From contig JAIRND010000066.1 in assembly GCA_031258225.1 (NCBI GenBank), forward strand, positions 1-57,357: 57,357 nt of DNA, in the 5' to 3' direction. This stretch comes from Treponema sp. Its GTDB lineage: Bacteria; Spirochaetota; Spirochaetia; Treponematales; Breznakiellaceae. A program made the translations under genes and the position numbers. This document shows, piece after piece, positions 1-57,357 of the stretch (the first letter of the stretch is position 1; each line of letters opens with the position of its first letter). The notes below the pieces were generated by a model. The model made no database searches. It was not told the DNA's origin and was given only the letters and a program-made list of their open reading frames with translations.

Positions 1-110
1 CGGAGTTTGCAAGGTAAAATCGCCTCATAGGTGGTACCCATTCGGCGATTTTTTGGGTTTCACGCGCGAAGCGCGACAAACTGCTGGGCGGAATACCGAC
101 CGGCCTGTGG
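1..110 (+). repeat. 3' part of a mosaic hairpin-rich intergenic repeat unit, cut by the window edge
   Basis: nt 1-44 equal 57314-57357 at 43/44 (mismatch at nt 39). Core GGAGTTTGCAAGGTA recurs at 13576-13590 with 1 mismatch. Hairpin AAAATCGCC (16-24)/GGCGATTTT (44-52) plus T-run. CGCGC-GAA-GCGCG hairpin at 63-75, also at 57202-57214. Right arm ACAAACTGCTGG at 77-88. Confidence 0.8.
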
Positions 111-13494: not shown

Positions 13495-13503
13495 TCTTGT
13501 ACA

Positions 13504-13670
13504 CTAGGAGCCTGTGGGACTTGTGGATTTTTGCGGCCTTTGACCGCAAAAATCTCCGATTTTCGGGCTCCTTTGGGAGTCTGCAAGGTAGAAAACGCGC
13601 AATTTTGCGCATTTTCTTTATCATTTGGGCTAAAGCCCCACAGACTCCTGGGGGGCCGGCTGTATGCCGT
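13504..13670 (+). repeat. complete unit of the mosaic hairpin-rich intergenic repeat (candidate ncRNA, REP/BIME-like or MITE-like element)
   Basis: Left arm 13504-13518 is complementary to 13637-13651. Hairpins at 13525-13555, 13591-13616 and 13627-13638. Core 13565-13590 is 23/26 identical to 57304-57329. Left 31 nt (13504-13534) are 26/31 identical to 57242-57272. Confidence 0.85.
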
Positions 13671-35980: not shown

Positions 35981-36922
35981 GTGGCGGGTACCGCGCTGTA
36001 CGATCAGTTTTACTCACGGCTCATTGCCCAGGAGCGCCGTTCCCCGCTGACGGCGGAGACGTACCGGACGGAGGCGCGGCGTTTCCTGGACTGGCTTGAC
36101 GCGGAGGGGCTGCAGCCGGCCTCGGTGGATTCTTCCGGTCTGTCCAGGTATCTGGACAGCCGCCGGAAGATAGACCGGATTGATTCCCGGTCCACCGCCA
36201 AGGCGATTTCCGCGCTTAGATCTTTTTTTCGTTTTACGATTGATGAATCGATCAGGGGCGATAATCCGGCCGCTGTTCTGGAAATGCCCCGGCAGCCGCT
36301 TCGCCTGCCGGAGGTGCTTTCCCGGGAAACGGTGGAACGTCTTCTCAACGCGGTAAACAGCGAGACCCCCCTGGGGCTGCGGGACCGGACGATCTTTGAG
36401 CTTATCTATTCGGCGGGTCTCAGGGTTTCCGAGGCGGTGTCTCTGGACCTGCGGGACCTTGAACTGCCCGATCCCGCCTCCGGTACCGCGGAGGGCGGCG
36501 GAATTGCCCGTGTAAAGGGCAAGGGGAACAAGGAGCGCCTGGTGGTTTTTGGGGATATTGCCGCCTTTTGGCTGCGCCGCTATCTAAAAGAATCCCGGCC
36601 GGGACTCGTGAAACATCGCCACAGCCGGGCCCTGTTTGTCGGCCGTTCCGGAAAACGTCTTTCCCGAAAGGGTATATGGAGGAACTATGCCCGCTTTACG
36701 TCTTTGGCGGGGACCAGTTCTCATCTCCACGCGCTTCGGCACAGTTTTGCTACGGAGTTACTTTCCGGCGGGGCGGATCTCCGTTCCGTACAGGCCCTGC
36801 TGGGGCACAGCGATCTGGCGACCACCCAGATCTACACCCATGTGGATGTTTCCCTGCTCCGGGAAAGCCACCGGAAATTCCTGCCCAGGCTGGGAAACGG
36901 GGCGCGGGAGTCCAAGGCGTGA
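35981..36922 (+). CDS. xerD: tyrosine site-specific recombinase XerD
   Basis: LRHSFATELL, LLGHSDLATTQIYTHV. GTG start. Confidence 0.8.
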   Translation: MAGTALYDQFYSRLIAQERRSPLTAETYRTEARRFLDWLDAEGLQPASVDSSGLSRYLDSRRKIDRIDSRSTAKAISALRSFFRFTIDESIRGDNPAAVLEMPRQPLRLPEVLSRETVERLLNAVNSETPLGLRDRTIFELIYSAGLRVSEAVSLDLRDLELPDPASGTAEGGGIARVKGKGNKERLVVFGDIAAFWLRRYLKESRPGLVKHRHSRALFVGRSGKRLSRKGIWRNYARFTSLAGTSSHLHALRHSFATELLSGGADLRSVQALLGHSDLATTQIYTHVDVSLLRESHRKFLPRLGNGARESKA

Positions 36923-37668: not shown

Positions 37669-38612
37669 TGGACCGCGGTTTGCTTGATCTGATGATAATC
37701 CGCATCCCGGCCATAAAGCCGGTGGAACGGGCGGAACTTTGCAAAAAACTCCGGGGGGAAGATGACCTGGTCCGCATGTCCGGTTCCGATCTGGAAACCC
37801 TGCTGGGCCGTCCGCTAAAGCGGCATGCCGGTATGGATACGATCCGTTTTGCCGCGGAACAGGATGCCGCGAACGCGCTAAAACGGGGCATCCGTTGGGT
37901 GTCCCTGGTATCCGCCTCCTATCCGCCGCTGCTCCGGGAGATCTACGATCCGCCGGTCCTGCTGTTTTACCGGGGCGCCCTGCCCGACGCGGACAGGCCG
38001 GCGGCGGCCGTTGTGGGAACCCGGAAGCCCGGGGGGGCTGCCCTTAAAGCGGCCTTTGATATAGGCCGTGGTCTTGGGCTTCAGGGTATTTCCGTTGTTT
38101 CGGGCCTTGCCCTGGGCATCGACGCCACGGCCCACCGGGGGAACCTTGAGGGAGGGGGCAGGACCTACGCGGTCCTGGGTTCCGGGGTGGATGAGATATA
38201 CCCCTCCTCCAACCGCCCGCTGGCGCGGAGGATTCTGGAGGGCGGCGGGGGCATTCTTTCGGAGTATCCCCCCGGCACGGAACCCCAGAAGTGGCATTTC
38301 CCCGCCCGGAACCGGATCATCTCCGCTATGGTCCGGGGGACTCTGATTGTGGAGGCCCCCGCCGCGTCGGGGGCGCTGATAACCGCCCGCTTTGCCCTGG
38401 AACACGGCCGGGATCTGTGGGTTTCATCGGCGGGCCTGGGGGCCGCGGGGACCGCCCGTTTGGCGGGGGAGGGGGCTAAAATCATCGCTTCCGCTTCTGA
38501 TATAGTACGTGAATGGGCCATCGCGGAACAGGCGGAACAAGTGGAAGACCGGGGCGCTTCCATCGGCAGAACCCTTGCCGATTCCCTGGCCCGGCGCCTG
38601 GCGATACGGTGA
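37665..38612 (+). CDS. dprA: DNA-processing protein DprA (Smf)
   Basis: GLALGIDATAHRG, AVLGSGVDEIYP, FPARNRIISA, GALITARFALEHGRD. Confidence 0.9.
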   Translation: MMDRGLLDLMIIRIPAIKPVERAELCKKLRGEDDLVRMSGSDLETLLGRPLKRHAGMDTIRFAAEQDAANALKRGIRWVSLVSASYPPLLREIYDPPVLLFYRGALPDADRPAAAVVGTRKPGGAALKAAFDIGRGLGLQGISVVSGLALGIDATAHRGNLEGGGRTYAVLGSGVDEIYPSSNRPLARRILEGGGGILSEYPPGTEPQKWHFPARNRIISAMVRGTLIVEAPAASGALITARFALEHGRDLWVSSAGLGAAGTARLAGEGAKIIASASDIVREWAIAEQAEQVEDRGASIGRTLADSLARRLAIR

Positions 38613-38646
38613 GGTTCCGCGCGCGGCGGTTTGTAAGGAAAAACGA

Positions 38647-38721
38647 ATGACTGTGAAGGCAATGACTGTGAAGGCAATGACTGTAAAGGCAATGACTGTG
38701 AAGGCAATGACTGTGAAGGCA
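38647..38721 (+). repeat. 5 x 15-bp perfect-register tandem repeat (ATGACTGTGAAGGCA), each unit starting with an in-frame ATG
   Basis: Units at 38647, 38662, 38677 (one synonymous G to A), 38692 and 38707. They encode (MTVKA)x5 at the topA N-terminus. Confidence 0.95.
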
Positions 38722-40917
38722 GAGAATAGCGATAAAGCTGAAAACTCCAAGCCCAAGGCGGTACGGCGCGGTGTCCGTAAGAAGCCCGGCAAAAAGCCGG
38801 AGAAAAAGACCCTTATCATCATGGAATCCCCCCACAAGGCGGAAACCGTTCAGAAGATACTGGGTTCAGACTACACCGTAAAGGCCTGTATCGGCCATTT
38901 AATCGATTTACCCAAGTCCCGGCTTGCCATTGACGTGGATCACAACTTTGAGCCTGAGTATATCACCGTCCGGGGACGTTCAAAACTTTTGAAGGAACTG
39001 CAGGGGGACGCGAAAAAATCCGGCATGGTTCTCCTGGCCAGCGACCCGGACCGGGAGGGGGAGGCCATTGCCTGGCACCTTAAAAACGCCATTGCCGCGA
39101 AGACCGACAAGGTTCCGGTCCGGCGGATCAGCATCAACGAGATTACCCCCCAGGTTGTCCGGGACGCGGTAATAAAACCCCAGGATATTAACGAGGACCT
39201 TGTAAACGCCCAAAAAGCCCGGCGGGTGCTGGATCGCCTGGTGGGGTACAACCTTTCACCGCTGTTGTGGAAAAAAGTGAAAAACGGCCTGTCTGCGGGA
39301 CGGGTACAGTCCGTGGCCCTGCGGATAATCTGCGAACGGGAGAAGGAGGTGGAATCCTTTATCCCGGAAGAGTACTGGACTCTGGACGCGGACTTCAGGC
39401 TTGGGCGTTCCGCGTTTACCGCCCAACTGGTCAGTTGGCGGGGGGCCAAGCCGGAATTGAAAACTGAAGAAGCGGTCAATAAGATCATCGCCGAGATTAA
39501 ACATGCCGATTGTGTGGTCGGGGAAATCCGGGAGACCGACAGGATCGTGCGGCCCCGGGCCCCGTTTACCACCAGCCAGATGCAGCAGACCGCGGCCAAC
39601 CGTCTGGGCTTTACGGCCCGTAAGACGATGCAGGTGGCCCAGCAGTTGTACGAGGGGATCAACATCGGCGCCTCCCGGGTGGGGCTTATCACCTACATGC
39701 GTACTGACTCGGTGCGCGTATCCCAAACCGCCCTGGCGGAGCTGCGGGACTGGCTGGGTAAAAACTACCCCGGCGACTTTCCCGAAACGCCGAACGAATA
39801 CTCGGTGGGGAAAAAGGCCCAGGACGCCCACGAGGCGATCCGGCCCACGTTTGTGGACTACACCCCCGACTCGGTAAAGGAGTACCTTAGCCGGGATCAA
39901 CTGCGGCTCTATACGATTATCTGGGAACGGTTTGTTTCCAGCCAGATGAACAACGCCAAAAACCGGTCCCTGAGCGCCGATATTGCCGCGGGGGAGGCCC
40001 TGTTCAGGATCACGGGGACCAAACTTATCGAGCGGGGATTCTACAAGGTTATCAAGCTGCTCTCCGGCAAGGAGGAACAGGGTAATCCCTACCCCTCCCT
40101 TAAAACCGGGGACACGGTAAAGATGGACAAGTTCTACCCCGACCAGCATTTTACCCAGGGGCCGCCCCGCTATACCGACGCGTCCATCGTGCGGGTTCTG
40201 GAGGAAAAAGGCATAGGCCGGCCCTCCACCTACGCGCCGATTATTTCGGTGCTTCTGGACCGTTACTACGTAACACGTTCCAATAAACAACTGGTTCCCA
40301 CGGTTTTGGGCAGACTGATAAATGACATGCTGGTGGAGTATTTTCCCCACTATGTTGACGCCGCCTTTACCGCCGACATGGAAAACAAACTTGACAAGGT
40401 GGAAGATAACGCCATTCAGTGGCCGGACATGATCCGGGAATTCTGGGACCCCTTTAAGGACCGCCTGGACAATGTGGGAAAGACCCTGGAATCCTACAAG
40501 GGATCGCTGGACGAGCCCACCGATTATGTCTGCGAAAAATGCGGCAAGCCCATGCTGAAAAAGCTGGGCCGCTTTGGGTTCTTCCTTGCCTGTTCCGGTT
40601 TTCCTGAGTGCAGGAATACTAAATCCATACCGCTGGCAACGTGTCCCAAGTGCGGGGGCGACGTTGTGGCCCGGAAGAACCGGGGCCGGGGCAGGGAATT
40701 CTACGGCTGCGTGAATTATCCGGCCTGCGATTTTATCAGCCACTACAAACCCATCAACCAGAATTGCCCCAAATGCGGTCAGTTCCTGGTGGAAAAGTAC
40801 GACAAAAAGAACGGGTACCATAAGGCGTGTATCAACCCGGATTGTGATTACCTTCATAGTGAGGAAGATGAGGTGGAGGGCCCCGGGCCGGGGGAAGGCG
40901 GTGAACATGAAGAATAA
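38647..40917 (+). CDS. topA: DNA topoisomerase I
   Basis: Toprim LIIMESPHKAETV, ASDPDREGEAIAWH, active-site region GLITYMRTDS, and C-terminal Cys4 zinc ribbons. Start placed at the first repeat ATG (AAGGA at 38635-38639). ORF-track start 38509 overlaps dprA and is rejected. Confidence 0.93.
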   Translation: MTVKAMTVKAMTVKAMTVKAMTVKAENSDKAENSKPKAVRRGVRKKPGKKPEKKTLIIMESPHKAETVQKILGSDYTVKACIGHLIDLPKSRLAIDVDHNFEPEYITVRGRSKLLKELQGDAKKSGMVLLASDPDREGEAIAWHLKNAIAAKTDKVPVRRISINEITPQVVRDAVIKPQDINEDLVNAQKARRVLDRLVGYNLSPLLWKKVKNGLSAGRVQSVALRIICEREKEVESFIPEEYWTLDADFRLGRSAFTAQLVSWRGAKPELKTEEAVNKIIAEIKHADCVVGEIRETDRIVRPRAPFTTSQMQQTAANRLGFTARKTMQVAQQLYEGINIGASRVGLITYMRTDSVRVSQTALAELRDWLGKNYPGDFPETPNEYSVGKKAQDAHEAIRPTFVDYTPDSVKEYLSRDQLRLYTIIWERFVSSQMNNAKNRSLSADIAAGEALFRITGTKLIERGFYKVIKLLSGKEEQGNPYPSLKTGDTVKMDKFYPDQHFTQGPPRYTDASIVRVLEEKGIGRPSTYAPIISVLLDRYYVTRSNKQLVPTVLGRLINDMLVEYFPHYVDAAFTADMENKLDKVEDNAIQWPDMIREFWDPFKDRLDNVGKTLESYKGSLDEPTDYVCEKCGKPMLKKLGRFGFFLACSGFPECRNTKSIPLATCPKCGGDVVARKNRGRGREFYGCVNYPACDFISHYKPINQNCPKCGQFLVEKYDKKNGYHKACINPDCDYLHSEEDEVEGPGPGEGGEHEE

Positions 40918-41848
40918 AGCGGCGGGGGGTACGGATTTTCCCGTTGCGGAAGACTGTCCCGCCGTAATGCGGGAGTACCTTTCCTATTTGAAGGCGGTGC
41001 GGGGGGTTTCCGACAGGACCATTGAAGCCTATGGGAAGGACCTTTCCCATTTTGCCGCCTATTGCCTCAACTTCGCGCTGGATCCGGAAAAACTGGATAC
41101 CAAGGAACTGCGGGGCTTTATCGCCGATCAGAGCGCGGAAGGGGCCGCCGCGGTAAGCGTGAACCGGGCCCTGTCTTCCATCCGGGGATTTTACCGCTGG
41201 ATGGTCCGCTTTGGCCGCCGGCAGAATAACCCCTGCGATACCCTGCGGAACCTCAAGAGCCCCCGGAACCTGCCCAGCTTTCTCTGGGAACCGGAAATGG
41301 CCCGTTTCGCCGTACTGCCGGAAACCGCGGGGATCCTGTGGCCCTCCCGGGACAAGGCCCTGATCCTGACCATGTATTCGGCGGGGCTGCGTATTTCCGA
41401 ACTGGTCTCCCTTTCCCTTTCCAAACTTGAACCCGATTTTGGGGGCGCCCGCGTTATCGGCAAGGGGAACAAAGAGCGGTTTGTGTTCTTTTCCGACGAG
41501 GCGCGGGAGGCGCTGTCAATCTACCTGCCGGAACGGGAAAATCGAATCAAGGCGGACGGGAAACAGCCTGTGGACCGGGTCTTTGTCAACCGTAACGGCG
41601 GGGCAATCTCGGTTCCCGGCGTGCGGTGGATCATCGCCAGATACGCGGAGCGTTCCGGTTTGGGAAAGCGTATCCATCCGCATAGCCTGCGCCACAGTTT
41701 TGCCACCCATTTGGTCAATTCAGGCTGCGATGTACGGGTGGTACAGGAACTGCTGGGCCATGCCAGTCTTTCCACGACCCAGCGTTACACCCATGTGGAT
41801 ATTGAGCGGCTCAAGAAGGTCTACGCAAAGGCGCATCCTCATGGCTAG
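40907..41848 (+). CDS. xerC: tyrosine site-specific recombinase XerC
   Basis: LRHSFATHLV, LLGHASLSTTQRYTHVDIERLKKVYAKAHP. Confidence 0.8.
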   Translation: MKNKAAGGTDFPVAEDCPAVMREYLSYLKAVRGVSDRTIEAYGKDLSHFAAYCLNFALDPEKLDTKELRGFIADQSAEGAAAVSVNRALSSIRGFYRWMVRFGRRQNNPCDTLRNLKSPRNLPSFLWEPEMARFAVLPETAGILWPSRDKALILTMYSAGLRISELVSLSLSKLEPDFGGARVIGKGNKERFVFFSDEAREALSIYLPERENRIKADGKQPVDRVFVNRNGGAISVPGVRWIIARYAERSGLGKRIHPHSLRHSFATHLVNSGCDVRVVQELLGHASLSTTQRYTHVDIERLKKVYAKAHPHG

Positions 41849-51133: not shown

Positions 51134-51418
51134 ATGCGGAATGTAGCGGTCAGACCAGTACGGGATTTGCGGAACCGTTATGCCGAAATTGAGGAAATTC
51201 TTGAGCGGCACGATCCGGTAATTATTACCAAAAATGGACGGGGTACGGCTGTCCTTATGAATATCGAGGATTACGCTAAAATTGAGGAATACCAGCACAT
51301 ACTCTATGTAGAAGGCAAACTCAAAGAGGCTGAAGCCGAAGCAGAATCTCCCGATGTTGAATTGGTGGATTATAAGACTGTTTTCGAACATTTAAAAAAA
51401 ACCTATCATGGGTTATGA
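51134..51418 (+). CDS. type II antitoxin, Phd/YefM family
   Basis: VRPVRDLRNRYAEIEEILERHDPVIITKNGRGTAVLMNIEDY. Confidence 0.85.
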   Translation: MRNVAVRPVRDLRNRYAEIEEILERHDPVIITKNGRGTAVLMNIEDYAKIEEYQHILYVEGKLKEAEAEAESPDVELVDYKTVFEHLKKTYHGL

Positions 51419-51689
51419 TGTCAAACTATTAAAACTGGCGGTGTCTGATCTTGATGAAATCTGCCGGTATTTATCACGGTTCTATCCTGGTACCGTAGGC
51501 AGGTTCCTGGACGCCATGGAACATTGTCTGGACGAACTATCCGAAAACCCCCGAATGTTCCCTGAATATGGTGAAAAAAAATACCGTCGGGCGATAGTAC
51601 ATGAGTACCTGGTATTTTACAGAATCTTTGAAACCAATAGATCGATCAGGGTGTATCGCATCATTTATGGGAAGAGGAATATACGGTAA
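51408..51689 (+). CDS. type II toxin, RelE/ParE family
   Basis: 93 aa. Has an 11-nt overlap with the antitoxin gene. YRRAIVHEYLVFYRI...IRVYRIIYGKRN. Confidence 0.8.
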   Translation: MGYDVKLLKLAVSDLDEICRYLSRFYPGTVGRFLDAMEHCLDELSENPRMFPEYGEKKYRRAIVHEYLVFYRIFETNRSIRVYRIIYGKRNIR

Positions 51690-56509: not shown

Positions 56510-57136
56510 TCAGTTTTCCGCCCTGGCTTTGACGCAGACACGGCTTTTGCCTTCGGTTATGATCTCGGGCTCGGCAAAGCCCGCGCTGGTTAAATACCGT
56601 TGGAAATCGGATGGGGTGTAGATGTTAAGGTTCAGCTTTGTTATCCAGAACTGGTAGGGCGCTTCTCCGTCATCAGATATGCTCATCTCATTGCAGATGA
56701 AAAAAATACCCCCCGGCTTCAGCACCCGCCGTACCTCTTTAAGGTCCCCGGCAAAGTCCGGCCAGAAGTAGATCGTTTCAAAGGCGGTAACGATGTCGAA
56801 ACTGTTGTCGGGCCAGGGGTTCTCCGAAACACTGCCCAGCCGTATCTCCGCGCGGCCCGCGTTGACCGCCTTCCGGTTCAGCCTTTTGGTTTTTTCCACA
56901 CAGACTTCCGAATAATCAAGGCCGCAGACTCTGCCTTCCGTTGCCAGGCGCAGCATCCGCGCCACGTTCCCGCCGCCCCCGCAGCCGATGTCCAGAATCC
57001 GGTCTCCGCTCTTGATGTCAAGATGCTCAAGGCCCCAGCGCGAGATCGGCGCGTGTCCCATGTTCATCGTGGAAATCAACAACCGGCCGCCGAGCCCCTG
57101 GGGTTTGCGGAAATTACGCCACACCTTTTCAAACAT
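56510..57136 (-). CDS. class I SAM-dependent methyltransferase
   Basis: Motif I ILDIGCGGGGN, and LKPGGIFFI. Confidence 0.8.
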   Translation of the reverse strand: MFEKVWRNFRKPQGLGGRLLISTMNMGHAPISRWGLEHLDIKSGDRILDIGCGGGGNVARMLRLATEGRVCGLDYSEVCVEKTKRLNRKAVNAGRAEIRLGSVSENPWPDNSFDIVTAFETIYFWPDFAGDLKEVRRVLKPGGIFFICNEMSISDDGEAPYQFWITKLNLNIYTPSDFQRYLTSAGFAEPEIITEGKSRVCVKARAEN

Positions 57137-57184: not shown

Positions 57185-57357
57185 CCCGTGTTTCGTCAAG
57201 GCGCGCGAAGCGCGATTCTCGGGCTAAAGCCCCACAGACTCCTAGCAGCCTGTTGTACTTGTAGGTTTTTGCTCCACGTTGTGTCGCAAAAACCACGATA
57301 AATGGGCTGCTTTCGGAGTTTGCAAGGTAAAATCGCCTCATAGGTGGTACCTATTCG
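57185..57357 (+). repeat. mosaic hairpin-rich intergenic repeat: 3' part of one unit abutting a second unit that runs off the window
   Basis: CGCGC-GAA-GCGCG at 57202-57214. GGGC-TAAA-GCCC at 57221-57232. Right arm CCCACAGACTCCTAG (57231-57245) is contiguous with left arm CTAGCAGCCTGTTGT (57242-57256). Hairpin GGTTTTTGC (57264-57272)/GCAAAAACC (57286-57294). Core at 57304-57329. Confidence 0.85.

Follow-up and report, generated by a model that had tools for sequence, protein, structure and literature searches.

At the right edge of the 57,357-nt Treponema sp. contig analyzed here (the window, by which this whole stretch of DNA is meant), a 140-bp repeat is represented by fragments of two or three copies that lie against one another. 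The question is what kind of repeat this is, and how its copies came to be stacked in this way. It had been postulated that the locus is a mosaic of shuffled hairpin modules resembling the REP/BIME sequences of Escherichia coli, extragenic palindromes that a RAYT (Y1) transposase mobilizes by recognizing single-stranded hairpins. The findings described below have led to another answer. The repeat is very probably a MITE, a non-autonomous, non-coding element of 140 bp that is common in Treponema-group spirochaetes (order Treponematales) and has the rare tetramer CTAG as its target, and at this locus one copy (E2) landed in the duplicated CTAG of another (E1). As such, the family is an ordinary bacterial repeat.

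Distribution of the repeat

Scanning genomes for an 18-nt core pattern recovered at least 109 loci, at least 94 of them from at least 22 Treponema/Spirochaetaceae/Treponematales genomes (Spirochaetota), and nhmmer run on the loci listed gave about 110 copies. Within single genomes the copies are dispersed, over at least 32 loci in Cd354_bin93 (JAIROT01), at least 17 in Po218_bin16 (JAITNM01), and at least 9 in Nm470_bin44; those inside Cd354_bin93 are 95-100% identical. The dispersed, structured, hairpin-rich character that the preliminary description gave to the repeat is borne out. A blastn comparison of the element with 72,556 plasmids produced no match, and the core pattern had 0 matches in IMG/VR viral contigs. 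The source genomes are mostly uncultured termite-gut MAGs.

Matches to the core pattern are often located at contig ends. At the start of the window, a B'-subfamily copy that is cut by the contig start retains its right 83 nt (1-83, forward strand; nhmmer match 2-92, E=6e-12), with the M2 core at 2-16, an extended hairpin 2, a GAA-type hairpin 3 at 63-75, and a right arm whose last bases, up to 83, read ...ACAAACTG. It is followed by CTGG (84-87), its right target-site duplication; the left one falls outside the contig. In the family as a whole, no duplication other than CTAG is more frequent than CTGG. This copy and the opposite end of the window (57314-57357) have 44 nt in common with one mismatch, and the two breaks of the contig therefore fall within copies that belong to one subfamily.

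Architecture of the element

The element begins GAGCC, ends ACTC, and is without coding capacity, being too short for a transposase. Its plan is seen in the complete A-subfamily copy at 13508-13647 (forward strand), identified by nhmmer (E=5e-44) and by the family alignment. The left part of this copy comprises the L arm (13508-13520), hairpin 1 (13525-13557), and M1 (13565-13571), and the right part comprises M2 plus CAAGGTA (13576-13590), hairpin 2 (13591-13616), hairpin 3 of the TAAA type (13627-13638), and the R arm (13635-13647). The copy begins 10 nt past the stop codon of ispG (IspG by translation). For the ORF that lies downstream, no identical product is on record elsewhere.

Length is well conserved: 41 of the 63 full copies measure 140-143 nt when the outer G and C are counted, and the segment past the M2 core is 56-58 nt long in 59/63. 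The terminal inverted repeats, GAGCCTGTGGGAC on the left and GCCCCACAGACTC on the right, are 13-14 bp long and have the form GAG-YY-TGT-NG-NRC. Positions 7-12 pair with 137-142, two of these pairs (10/139 and 12/137) co-vary, and positions 5-6 are consistently mismatched. Between the ends, M1 and M2 form an internal inverted pair that repeats the terminal motif, so that the element looks like two fused half-elements. Variants have proliferated as well: there are 48-nt mini copies and right-half copies with matching flanks of their own (for example, CTGG/CTGG in L059), and a 110-nt deletion variant is present at 8 different loci of one genome.

Discrete hairpin-level changes between copies, which had been taken as modular gain and loss, do exist: the tips of hairpins 1 and 2 may be shorter or longer, and an extra mini-hairpin may lie between M1 and M2. 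The shuffling of modules, the other part of that claim, is not seen. The order L arm, hairpin 1, M1, M2, hairpin 2, hairpin 3, R arm is fixed in 63/63 full M2-containing copies, a result in which the invariance of M2 itself is an ascertainment effect, all loci having been retrieved through the M2 core and copies lacking it being under-sampled. The catalogue of module order thus gives one fixed architecture, and the apparent mosaic consists of juxtaposed, truncated remnants, which is essentially what the preliminary description itself had set against its own interpretation. Furthermore, the slot before the right arm holds exactly one hairpin per copy, and whether this is of the GAA or the TAAA type tracks the left-arm subfamily. 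The two hairpins are subfamily alleles of one subterminal hairpin 3, not independent modules, and hairpin 3 co-varies with the left arm because the 3' arm of this hairpin coincides with the inner portion of the right inverted repeat.

Target site and duplication

The tetramers that flank the element are identical in 38/64 copies, 23 of which have CTAG/CTAG. Twenty copies have CTAG on neither side, and 15 of these still have identical tetramers (CTGG in five, CCAG in three, CGAG in two, and CGGG, CCGG, CTAC, TTAG, and CTTA in one each). In permutations, the mean number of such non-CTAG identities is 3.15, and 15 was reached in 0/20,000 shuffles. In addition, non-palindromic flanks give 14 direct matches and 0 inverted ones. 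The element is flanked by a 4-bp direct target-site duplication with the consensus CTAG. It counts against the MITE explanation that the flanking tetramers are non-identical in 26/64 copies; most of these are one transition off CTAG, and they may reflect decay at a mutable site. The complete copy in the window is one of three (of 64) with a CTAG/CTGG pair: CTAG at 13504-13507 is its left duplication, and the right flanking tetramer, CTGG at 13648-13651, differs from this by one base and is a decayed or variant duplication.

A 2-bp duplication of TA was the model initially preferred. In this model, the repeat would be a MITE of the IS630/Tc1-mariner type, reading GGAGCC...ACTCC and inserting at CTAG with only the central TA duplicated. 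The central dinucleotides are identical in 43/64 copies (TA/TA in 30), C precedes the left one in 60/63, and G follows the right one in 59/64; C...G flanks around TA are the expected trace of an IS630-type insertion into CTAG. However, where the outer bases are other than C...G, the two flanks change together as direct repeats (CTAC/CTAC, TTAG/TTAG, CTTA/CTTA), a result that is unexplained by a 2-bp duplication, and once this was seen the 4-bp model replaced it. IS630 elements are also strict for TA, yet non-TA centres (TG, CA, GA, GG, CG) are frequent here, and 13 copies have a concordant non-TA centre. Finally, the GAG...TGT... ends look like those of the IS5 family. An IS630-type origin is, on balance, unlikely.

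Direct insertion of one copy into another is seen at L036, where a nested element is flanked by CTGG/CTGG. When the 140-nt insert and one CTGG are deleted in silico, a continuous older copy is restored, and the HMM match grows from 7-77 to 7-100. The orthologous loci compared gave no true empty site from a sister strain, which weakens the case for a MITE; the pairs L058/L085 and L059/L068 are too diverged for base precision.

CTAG is the rarest and most depleted tetramer of the window, with 13 sites observed vs 211 expected. Outside elements, spirochaete loci totaling 656 kb contain 144 CTAG sites, 34% of which are stop codons of long ORFs; correspondingly, a copy of the duplication serves as the stop codon of the neighboring gene in 30% of full copies. 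The preference of the repeat for gene ends is due to where CTAG sites occur. This rare target, often a TAG stop codon, steers the MITE to gene ends and leaves the stop codon intact. Moreover, because an insertion leaves a CTAG at either end and the tetramer is extremely rare elsewhere in these genomes, the flanks of an element are favored targets for later insertions, and head-to-tail pairs with one common CTAG are therefore formed. Existing copies are in this way turned into targets, and the stacked arrays that result resemble mosaics. Head-to-tail abutment with a common CTAG, as first noticed at the right edge of the window, is also present at L099, L036, L085, and L104, which are from other genomes, and 5/5 abutting pairs are in the direct orientation.

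These arrays bear on the comparison with REP/BIME sequences. The Treponema repeat is hairpin-rich and, as single-stranded DNA, folds strongly (z=-6.7). It is an extragenic sequence, frequently located just past a gene, and its copies cluster head-to-tail. Mini-hairpins of the d(GCGAAGC) type are, in addition, very stable in DNA. However, the clusters are direct rather than alternating, and the unit is 140 bp long, with seven parts in fixed order and a GAGCC beginning, rather than a palindrome of 20-40 nt. The conserved GT[AG]G head is absent. Among the 57 ORFs of the window there is no Y1 transposase (Y1_Tnp) domain, and the association with a RAYT or a cognate IS for which the preliminary description had proposed a search is likewise not seen among them. 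The terminal inverted repeats and the 4-bp direct duplication are features that REPs do not have, and on these defining traits the analogy fails; the duplication statistics and the L036 reconstruction contradict it as well. That the repeat is REP/BIME-like and spread by a RAYT is extremely improbable.

The right edge of the window

Given the MITE interpretation, the right edge can be divided into its parts. E1 (57221-57241, forward strand) is a 21-nt right-end remnant of an A-subfamily copy, identical to 13627-13647 and included in an nhmmer match at 57216-57245. It consists of hairpin 3 of the TAAA type (57221-57232), followed by the R arm ending ...CACAGACTC. The 23-mer GGGCTAAAGCCCCACAGACTCCT has exactly two occurrences vs 0.00 expected by chance, and solo end fragments comparable to E1 are present at L068 and L013. 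The right arm, ...CCCACAGACTC, which ends at 57241, is followed by a single CTAG (57242-57245) and then by the left arm CAGCCTGTTGT..., which starts at 57246. This CTAG is common to both copies, being the right duplication of E1 and also the target and left duplication of E2. E2 (57246-57357, forward strand; nhmmer match 57242-57346, E=5e-24) is the left 112 nt of a B'-subfamily copy that is cut by the contig end. It contains the L arm (57246-57258), hairpin 1 (57264-57294), M1 (57304-57310), M2 (57315-57322), and, starting at 57329, an extended hairpin 2 of which the 5' half is present. The copy at 1-83 has an R arm (ACAAC) that corresponds to the L arm of E2 (GTTGT). The far end of E2, where a second CTAG would be expected, is absent from the contig, a further point against the MITE explanation. 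The junction was originally placed at 57231-57256, and all of its coordinates hold, with one CTAG shared by the two arms. The hairpins are likewise where they had been placed, the GAA hairpin at 57202-57214 and 63-75 and the TAAA hairpin, GGGC-TAAA-GCCC, at 57221-57232 and 13627-13638.

Both ends of the window lie inside repeat copies, and many related contigs end there too, a situation in which an assembler might have wrongly joined two copies. However, an independent Logan contig (L110, run SRR14710907) runs from unique upstream DNA across the E1 remnant and the CTAG into the initial 5 nt of E2, and has the same sequence through ...ACTCCTAGCAGCC. Equivalent junctions are also present in four other genomes. 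The junction is real, and the idea of an assembly chimera, which had been raised when the locus was first described, is scarcely credible.

To the left of 57221, similarity to the family is not significant, except for an exact 14-mer (57202-57215 = 63-76). Here the 13-mer CGCGCGAAGCGCG (57202-57214 = 63-75; 2 exact matches vs 0.25 expected with up to 1 mismatch) is followed by A at both positions. Consequently, of what had been called the upstream partial unit, only 57221-57241 is confidently element-derived. The 14-mer, a copy of the B'-type hairpin 3 (CGCGC-GAA-GCGCG plus A, forward strand), probably derives from an earlier copy of the B' type that has lost its right arm, an uncertain attribution for which the 14-nt identity is the sole basis and which weighs on the MITE explanation to that extent. 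The segment 57137-57220 was also considered as the decayed right half of an A-type copy, in which hairpin 2 would have been shortened to the GAA hairpin. Although collinear in appearance, the alignment scores at the shuffle mean (18 vs 17.9), and this was rejected as unsupported. Among the approximately 110 copies listed, GAA and TAAA hairpins no more than 60 nt apart are found at this locus only. They stand side by side at 57202-57232 probably because the remnants of two copies abut there.

The neighboring gene (56510-57136, reverse strand) encodes a class I SAM-dependent methyltransferase (Pfam Methyltransf_11/25/31). According to the preliminary description, the locus may affect the promoter of this gene. 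The sole sigma-70-like promoter candidate of the gene (57199-57170, reverse strand) has TTGACG, an 18-nt spacer, and TATGCT (1 site vs 0.1 expected) and lies outside the confidently element-derived DNA. The GAA hairpin begins 3 nt upstream of the -35 box of this candidate. The nearest relatives of the methyltransferase share 79% identity with it; they have different upstream regions, and the loci are not comparable. Apart from this contig, one short Logan contig is the only record of the methyltransferase product.

A history of the right edge may be proposed from this arrangement. An A-subfamily copy, E1, would have been present upstream of the methyltransferase promoter. A B'-subfamily copy, E2, would then have inserted into the right-hand CTAG of E1, and E1 would afterwards have been cut down to its last 21 nt. 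The adjacent CGCGC-GAA-GCGCG hairpin would probably be debris of a still older B' copy.

Conservation of the hairpins

Compensatory double changes are found in 8/9 pairs of hairpin 2 and in 7/11 pairs of hairpin 1. Covariation of the whole structure is 0.194 vs 0.085 in shuffles, and 0/500 shuffles were as high. Compensatory change of this strength in hairpins 1 and 2 exceeds what a selfish MITE requires and so speaks against the preferred explanation. It also favors another possibility, that the copies are structured ncRNA genes or cis-acting RNA (a terminator, insulator, or stabilizer) that have been duplicated through the genome, with mobility being secondary. The constant length across divergent subfamilies and the concentration of copies at the 3' ends of genes agree with this, as do the folding z-scores of the copy at 13508-13647 (-6.7 to -10.8), whose hairpin 2 is called terminator-like.

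However, a search of the window against Rfam 15 gave 0 matches at the gathering score and none accepted at E<=1 (best sub-threshold E about 0.35). Between co-directional genes, the orientation of the copies is evenly divided, 12 having that of the genes vs 10 opposed. Because the A/T tracts of hairpin 2 change sides between subfamilies (pair 94/113: AU 20, UA 5), a U-tract terminator is not conserved, and a role in termination is weakened. The arms of a palindrome can stay complementary through templated repair without selection. Furthermore, the target duplications and the nested insertion show transposition, and the preference for gene ends is accounted for by the positions of CTAG. An RNA gene or cis-acting RNA as the primary identity of the repeat is thus most unlikely. 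A long-range pairing of ACTTGTGGATTTT with GGAGTTTGCAAG given by RNAalifold shows no covariation, and its 3' partner is fixed by the search pattern; it was not used.

A more speculative proposal, and a rather doubtful one, is that the element is more than a selfish MITE, namely a length-constant 140-nt scaffold of two fused half-elements (L...M1 and M2...R), each having inverted ends of its own and moving at times by itself. The three hairpins would be kept by selection across Treponematales because they serve the host or the transposition machinery. For example, they could insulate transcription in both directions at the ends of genes, or they could be a binding array for a nucleoid or transposase protein that recognizes the four GGAGYYTG motifs.

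The mobilizing enzyme

The 4-bp CTAG duplication and the IS5-like GAG...TGT... ends suggest that the MITE would be mobilized by an IS5-family transposase. The target duplication of IS5 is 4 bp, C(A/T)AG/A (PMC11677980), and the ends of the family include GAGACCTTTGCAAAA (PMC4596501) and GAGGGTGTAGACAAAAT (PMC3189936). The resemblance of the Treponema ends, GAGCCTGTTGCAC and GAGTTTGCAAGG, to these is one judged by eye.

Neither the 109 loci (approximately 0.7 Mb) nor the 57 window ORFs yielded an autonomous element or a transposase gene, which counts against the explanation and makes the assignment to IS5 a tentative one. All-against-all clustering of ORFs across the loci revealed no multi-copy transposase-like family, GAG...CTC inverted pairs 0.7-2.6 kb apart are at chance level only, and stray end motifs outside known copies are just solo fragments beside ordinary genes. 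At L101, L084, and L108, where copies are truncated or consist of the right half only, the adjacent ORFs were considered as transposase candidates, and the genes are those for Dus, an ABC transporter, and Ogt. A handle for a transposase search is provided by the ends GAGCCTGT...ACAGRCTC together with the CTAG duplication. The family also has a practical consequence, as short-read assemblies of Treponema genomes, from termite guts and elsewhere, break at its copies. Masking or modeling it would give better MAG contiguity and fewer misreadings of its copies as an RNA gene or regulatory motif.

Comparison with known systems

Like the REP/BIME sequences of E. coli and the REPINs with their RAYTs, the Treponema element is extragenic, hairpin-forming, and clustered and could affect transcript ends. 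Unlike the E. coli BIMEs, in which REPs alternate and are joined by defined linkers, it is arranged directly, has a fixed order, and is flanked by a 4-bp duplication. A second resemblance is to Correia (Neisseria), RUP (pneumococcus), and Nezha (cyanobacteria), which are also structured, gene-adjacent, and of high copy number, with inverted ends and with subfamilies that are distinguished by internal deletions. These are MITEs of 100-160 bp that duplicate TA and are attributed to IS630-like transposases. In the Treponema element, by contrast, four bases co-vary as a direct repeat, and the ends look IS5-like.

MITEPsy1 of Pseudomonas syringae is a 100-nt, IS5-derived MITE that duplicates CTAG or YTAA and has been experimentally trapped (PMC3189936). 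The Treponema element shares with it and with other IS5-derived MITEs a length of 100-140 nt, the lack of coding sequence, terminal inverted repeats, and a 4-nt CTAG (or YTAA) duplication, and its copies, like those of MITEPsy1, are dispersed and mainly intergenic. By eye, its ends also begin much like those of the IS5 family, GAG/GGA...TGT or ...TTTGCAA (PMC4596501, PMC3189936). Unlike MITEPsy1, it has an internal inverted pair, M1/M2, and three hairpins that are kept by compensatory changes, and a parent IS with matching ends was not found in the loci and window searched. Furthermore, MITEPsy1 belongs to one pathovar, whereas the Treponema element extends across at least 22 genomes of an order.

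The preliminary view that repeats of this sort had not been described for spirochetes was too strong. A 2024 census of Spirochaetes found that Leptospira, Sediminispirochaeta, and Treponema average approximately 145 conserved MITEs per genome, most of them intergenic (PMC11602168). The element described here represents the same sort of population.

The junction at the right edge of the window

The right edge had been taken, in the preliminary description, for a BIME-like mosaic of shuffled hairpins. Re-reading of the sequence at three sites has confirmed all of the coordinates given for its hairpins and junction: the CGCGC-GAA-GCGCG (GAA) hairpin lies at 57202-57214 and 63-75, the GGGC-TAAA-GCCC (TAAA) hairpin at 57221-57232 and 13627-13638, and at 57231-57256 a right arm (...CCCACAGACTC) is joined by a single CTAG (57242-57245) to a left arm (CAGCCTGTTGT...). 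Chance does not account for these matches. Within the window, the 23-mer GGGCTAAAGCCCCACAGACTCCT occurs twice (0.00 expected), and a 15-nt core, GGAGTYTGCAAGGTA, has three exact occurrences.

The repeat is a 140-bp non-coding element, GAGCC...ACTC, a MITE with subfamilies that include A and B'. At the junction, a 21-nt A-type right-end remnant (E1, 57221-57241), identical in sequence to 13627-13647, is followed by CTAG, and a B' copy (E2, 57246-57357) starts immediately 3' of this tetramer, its far end missing. The two ends of the window have 44 nt in common with one mismatch, indicating that the contig breaks fall within two copies from a single repeat subfamily. Furthermore, the copy at the window start has a right arm (ACAAC) that corresponds to the left arm of E2 (GTTGT); thus, both contig ends represent the same subfamily and, given the one mismatch in 44 nt, separate copies. 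An assembly chimera, raised earlier as an alternative, is excluded by an independent Logan contig (run SRR14710907), which contains the methyltransferase gene, its upstream DNA, and the junction up to ...ACTCCTAGCAGCC, where it ends; consequently, the junction is real sequence.

To the left of 57221, similarity to the family is not significant (score 18, shuffle mean 17.9), with the exception of an exact 14-mer, 57202-57215, which equals 63-76, the form of hairpin 3 specific to B'. These 14 nt are probably what remains of a third, older copy whose right arm has been lost. An alternative collinear alignment, which would make the GAA hairpin a shortened hairpin 2 of E1, was rejected as lacking statistical support.

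Distribution and fixed order of parts

A scan with GGAGTYTGCAAGGTARAA, using one genome per species, returned at least 109 loci and is biased toward copies with an intact M2 core. By our own count of the matches listed, at least 94 loci lie in at least 22 Treponema, Spirochaetaceae, or Treponematales genomes; among these matches, the source genomes are mostly termite-gut MAGs, with a few of other origin. Cd354_bin93 has at least 32 loci, Po218_bin16 at least 17, and Nm470_bin44 at least 9. Fifteen listed loci in unrelated taxa match in the core alone and were set aside as chance hits. Many listed matches lie less than 100 nt from a contig end. With a profile derived from full copies, at least about 110 copies were detected in the listed loci, along with four pieces in the window: the right part of a copy (2-92), a complete copy (13500-13655), a right-end fragment (57216-57245), and the left two-thirds of a copy (57242-57346).

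The aligned copies have one order of parts: left (L) arm, TTGT, hairpin 1, CGAT plus about 5 nt, M1, a 3-4-nt linker, M2, hairpin 2, a spacer, hairpin 3, and right (R) arm. The L arm reads (G)GAGCCTGT-N-G-N-AC; M1 is GGGCTCC, complementary to the beginning of L; M2 is GGAGTYTG followed by CAAGGTA; and the R arm is (...ACARACTC(C)). Since the loci were retrieved via the M2 core, the invariance of this core is partly an artefact. The length, outer G and C included, is 140-143 nt in 41 of the 63 full copies that contain M2, and in 59 of these 63 the segment 3' of the M2 core is 56-58 nt. Cataloguing module order revealed no reordering, so the shuffling proposed earlier gives way to discrete differences: among the matches listed, a 110-nt form without most of hairpin 1 (8 loci of a single genome) and a 17-35-nt mini-hairpin inside the linker (eight copies); longer hairpin 1 tips in some copies; and an extended hairpin 2 tip in locus L010 and the window's B' subfamily.

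Hairpins as subfamily alleles

Immediately 5' of the R arm, each full copy carries a single hairpin, whose type tracks the L arm. An L arm of TGTGGGAC occurs together with the GGGC-TAAA-GCCC-C hairpin, TGTCGGAC with GGGC/GGAC...GCCC/GTCC-G, and TGTTGCAC or TGTTGCGC with (T)GCGC-GAA-GCGC(A). This linkage arises because the inner part of the right inverted repeat doubles as the 3' half of hairpin 3. L/R pairs 10/139 (CG 12, UA 8, GC 3) and 12/137 (GC 16, CG 7) co-vary. Thus, the GAA and TAAA hairpins are not modules gained and lost, as had been thought, but subfamily alleles of one feature, hairpin 3. Among all sequences examined, the two types lie within 60 nt of each other only at 57202-57232.

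Single copies folded far better than shuffled sequences, with z = -6.7 for DNA, -6.9 for plus-strand RNA, and -10.8 for minus-strand RNA. In covariation computed on 25 diverse copies, double changes were present in 8 of 9 pairs of hairpin 2 and 7 of 11 pairs of hairpin 1. Pairing reaches 94.7% in L1:M1, where position 2 is compensated in M1 (GC 20, CG 4) but not in R, and 99% in M2:R, where one pair co-varies; L positions 5-6 are unpaired with R in 24 of the 25. This pattern indicates that the four GGAGYYTG motifs (in L, M1, M2, and R) act as two adjoining inverted-repeat pairs. This arrangement suggests that two half-elements fused in the distant past. The hairpins could be needed for transposition, could be maintained by selection after insertion, or could stay complementary through templated repair.

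In hairpin 2 (columns 91-116 of A1, the alignment of MITE copies; e.g. window 13591-13616), the A and T tracts on either side of the G+C core swap sides between subfamilies (AAAA...TTTT or TTTT...AAAA; pair 94/113: AU 20, UA 5), making a conserved terminator role doubtful. Pairing is retained but terminator-like polarity is not.

A separate observation concerns L085, a locus from another genome, where two tandem right-half units (2836-2981) have the terminal motif altered on both arms together, one unit reading GGCAG...CTGCC and the other GGGCCC...GGGCCC, a compensatory change in the M2/R inverted pair.

Target-site duplication

With the ends taken as GAGCC...ACTC, the flanking four bases were compared. 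They are identical in 38 of 64 full copies, 23 of which have CTAG/CTAG. The informative cases are 20 copies whose two flanks both lack CTAG: in 15 of them the tetramers are the same (CTGG five times, CCAG three, CGAG two, and CGGG, CCGG, CTAC, TTAG, and CTTA once each); the permutation mean was 3.15, and 15 was reached in 0 of 20,000 shuffles. Non-palindromic flanks comprise 14 direct repeats and no inverted ones. These flanks thus represent a target-site duplication rather than a longer inverted repeat. A 2-bp TA duplication, the first reading, was discarded because the outer positions also co-vary (CTAC, TTAG, CTTA); a 4-bp duplication fits better. The non-identical flanks of the other 26 copies may be attributed to decay at a mutable site.

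L036 provides a natural control: a 140-nt copy flanked by CTGG/CTGG splits an older copy between M1 and M2; removal of the insert and one CTGG extends the older copy's profile match from 7-77 to a continuous 7-100. Further signs of mobility are deletion variants dispersed over several unrelated sites, mini copies of 48 nt (L038, L082), and right-half copies with their own matching flanks (e.g. L059, CTGG/CTGG).

A rare target, gene ends, and stacking

No tetramer in the window is as depleted as CTAG, which occurs 13 times (1046, 2270, 7935, 11891, 13504, 14223, 22050, 27577, 30275, 41845, 44422, 44903, 57242), whereas base composition predicts 211 occurrences and a Markov model 39.6. At least 7 of the 13 coincide by position with TAG stop codons of long ORFs, and that at 41845 is common to two convergent genes. 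Spirochaete loci totalling 656 kb contain only 144 CTAGs outside elements, of which 34% act as stop codons for ORFs of 100 codons or more; correspondingly, 20 of 66 full copies (30%) provide a neighbouring long ORF with its stop codon through one of their two duplication copies. The occurrence of CTAG at stop codons means that placement at gene ends requires no additional targeting. Every insertion brings a CTAG to either side, so that existing copies make up a sizeable share of the targets. Because copies bring such targets, abutting pairs with one common tetramer are expected; they are present in the window, L099, L036, L085, and L104.

Other repeats and genes

Several other features were met. 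The MITE flanks contain two more, unrelated short repeat families, one of about 53 nt (L008 4287-4339, L060 747-799, L072 6464-6516, L061 230-282, L096 3972-4024, L092 7021-7073) and one of about 118 nt (L013 1597-1712, L019 7-124, L004 2464-2550, L045 2-118, L061 2-116, L025 492-628), the latter also at contig ends; these genomes thus hold several small dispersed repeats. In L111, the orthologous region 5' of the closest methyltransferase homologue (2300-2450) is intergenic and without the MITE; it has other long palindromes (e.g. GGAAGACTTACTCCGGGCC...GGCCCTCCGTAAGTCTTTC and AGGAGTTTTGCC-TGT-GGCAAAACTCT), which could represent a further repeat family.

In the window, about six head-to-tail repeats of the 15-nt unit AATGACTGTGAAGGC (38646-38736, 97-100% identity) lie in the 5' part of the DNA topoisomerase I ORF (38509-40917); these could encode a pentapeptide repeated in frame; alternatively, the true start codon could be further downstream. 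Imperfect GC-rich repeats at 30-48-nt spacing (2574-2742; CGTTCCGCG...GGCGCCGCCCG...) overlap a minus-strand ORF with a DnaJ domain (2338-2898). A ParE-family toxin gene (51408-51689), between flagellar and fumarate hydratase genes, presumably forms a toxin-antitoxin pair with the small ORF just upstream.

The mobilising enzyme and comparison with known systems

By Pfam, the 57 window ORFs include those of housekeeping operons (V-type ATPase, dcw cluster, flagellar genes, FlaA, Rho, TopA, HslUV); among them there was no DDE or Y1 transposase, and there were two Xer-type recombinases in their usual contexts. These paralogous tyrosine recombinase genes (35981-36922 and 40844-41848; DNA stretches 72-78% identical), one 3' of ftsZ and the other in a dprA-topA-xer-hslVU cluster, appear to be housekeeping and without linkage to the repeat. 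Neither a stray full-length element nor a multi-copy family of transposase-like ORFs was found in the listed loci, and GAG...CTC inverted pairs at IS spacing were not above chance.

IS5 duplicates C(A/T)AG/A (PMC11677980), and the MITE ends resemble the IS5-family ends GAGACCTTTGCAAAA (PMC4596501) and GAGGGTGTAGACAAAAT (PMC3189936). MITEPsy1, a 100-nt IS5-derived MITE whose transposition has been trapped, duplicates CTAG or YTAA (PMC3189936). From the CTAG-type 4-bp duplication, the IS5-like ends, and this precedent, we infer an origin in the IS5 family.

Spirochaetes genomes, Treponema included, have about 145 conserved MITEs each in a 2024 census (PMC11602168); a literature search found no paper joining MITEs, Treponema, and termites. 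The family is useful mainly for the assembly and annotation of these genomes, and it tidily illustrates how a rare target leads to stop-codon-adjacent insertion and self-stacking. The REP/BIME identity first proposed does not hold: its units are no short palindromes and are flanked by a target duplication, and the 57 window ORFs include no RAYT gene. In addition, clusters of this family are direct, whereas those of BIMEs alternate. Instead, its behaviour is that of a classical bacterial MITE, and, partner IS excepted, it has every defining feature that could be tested.
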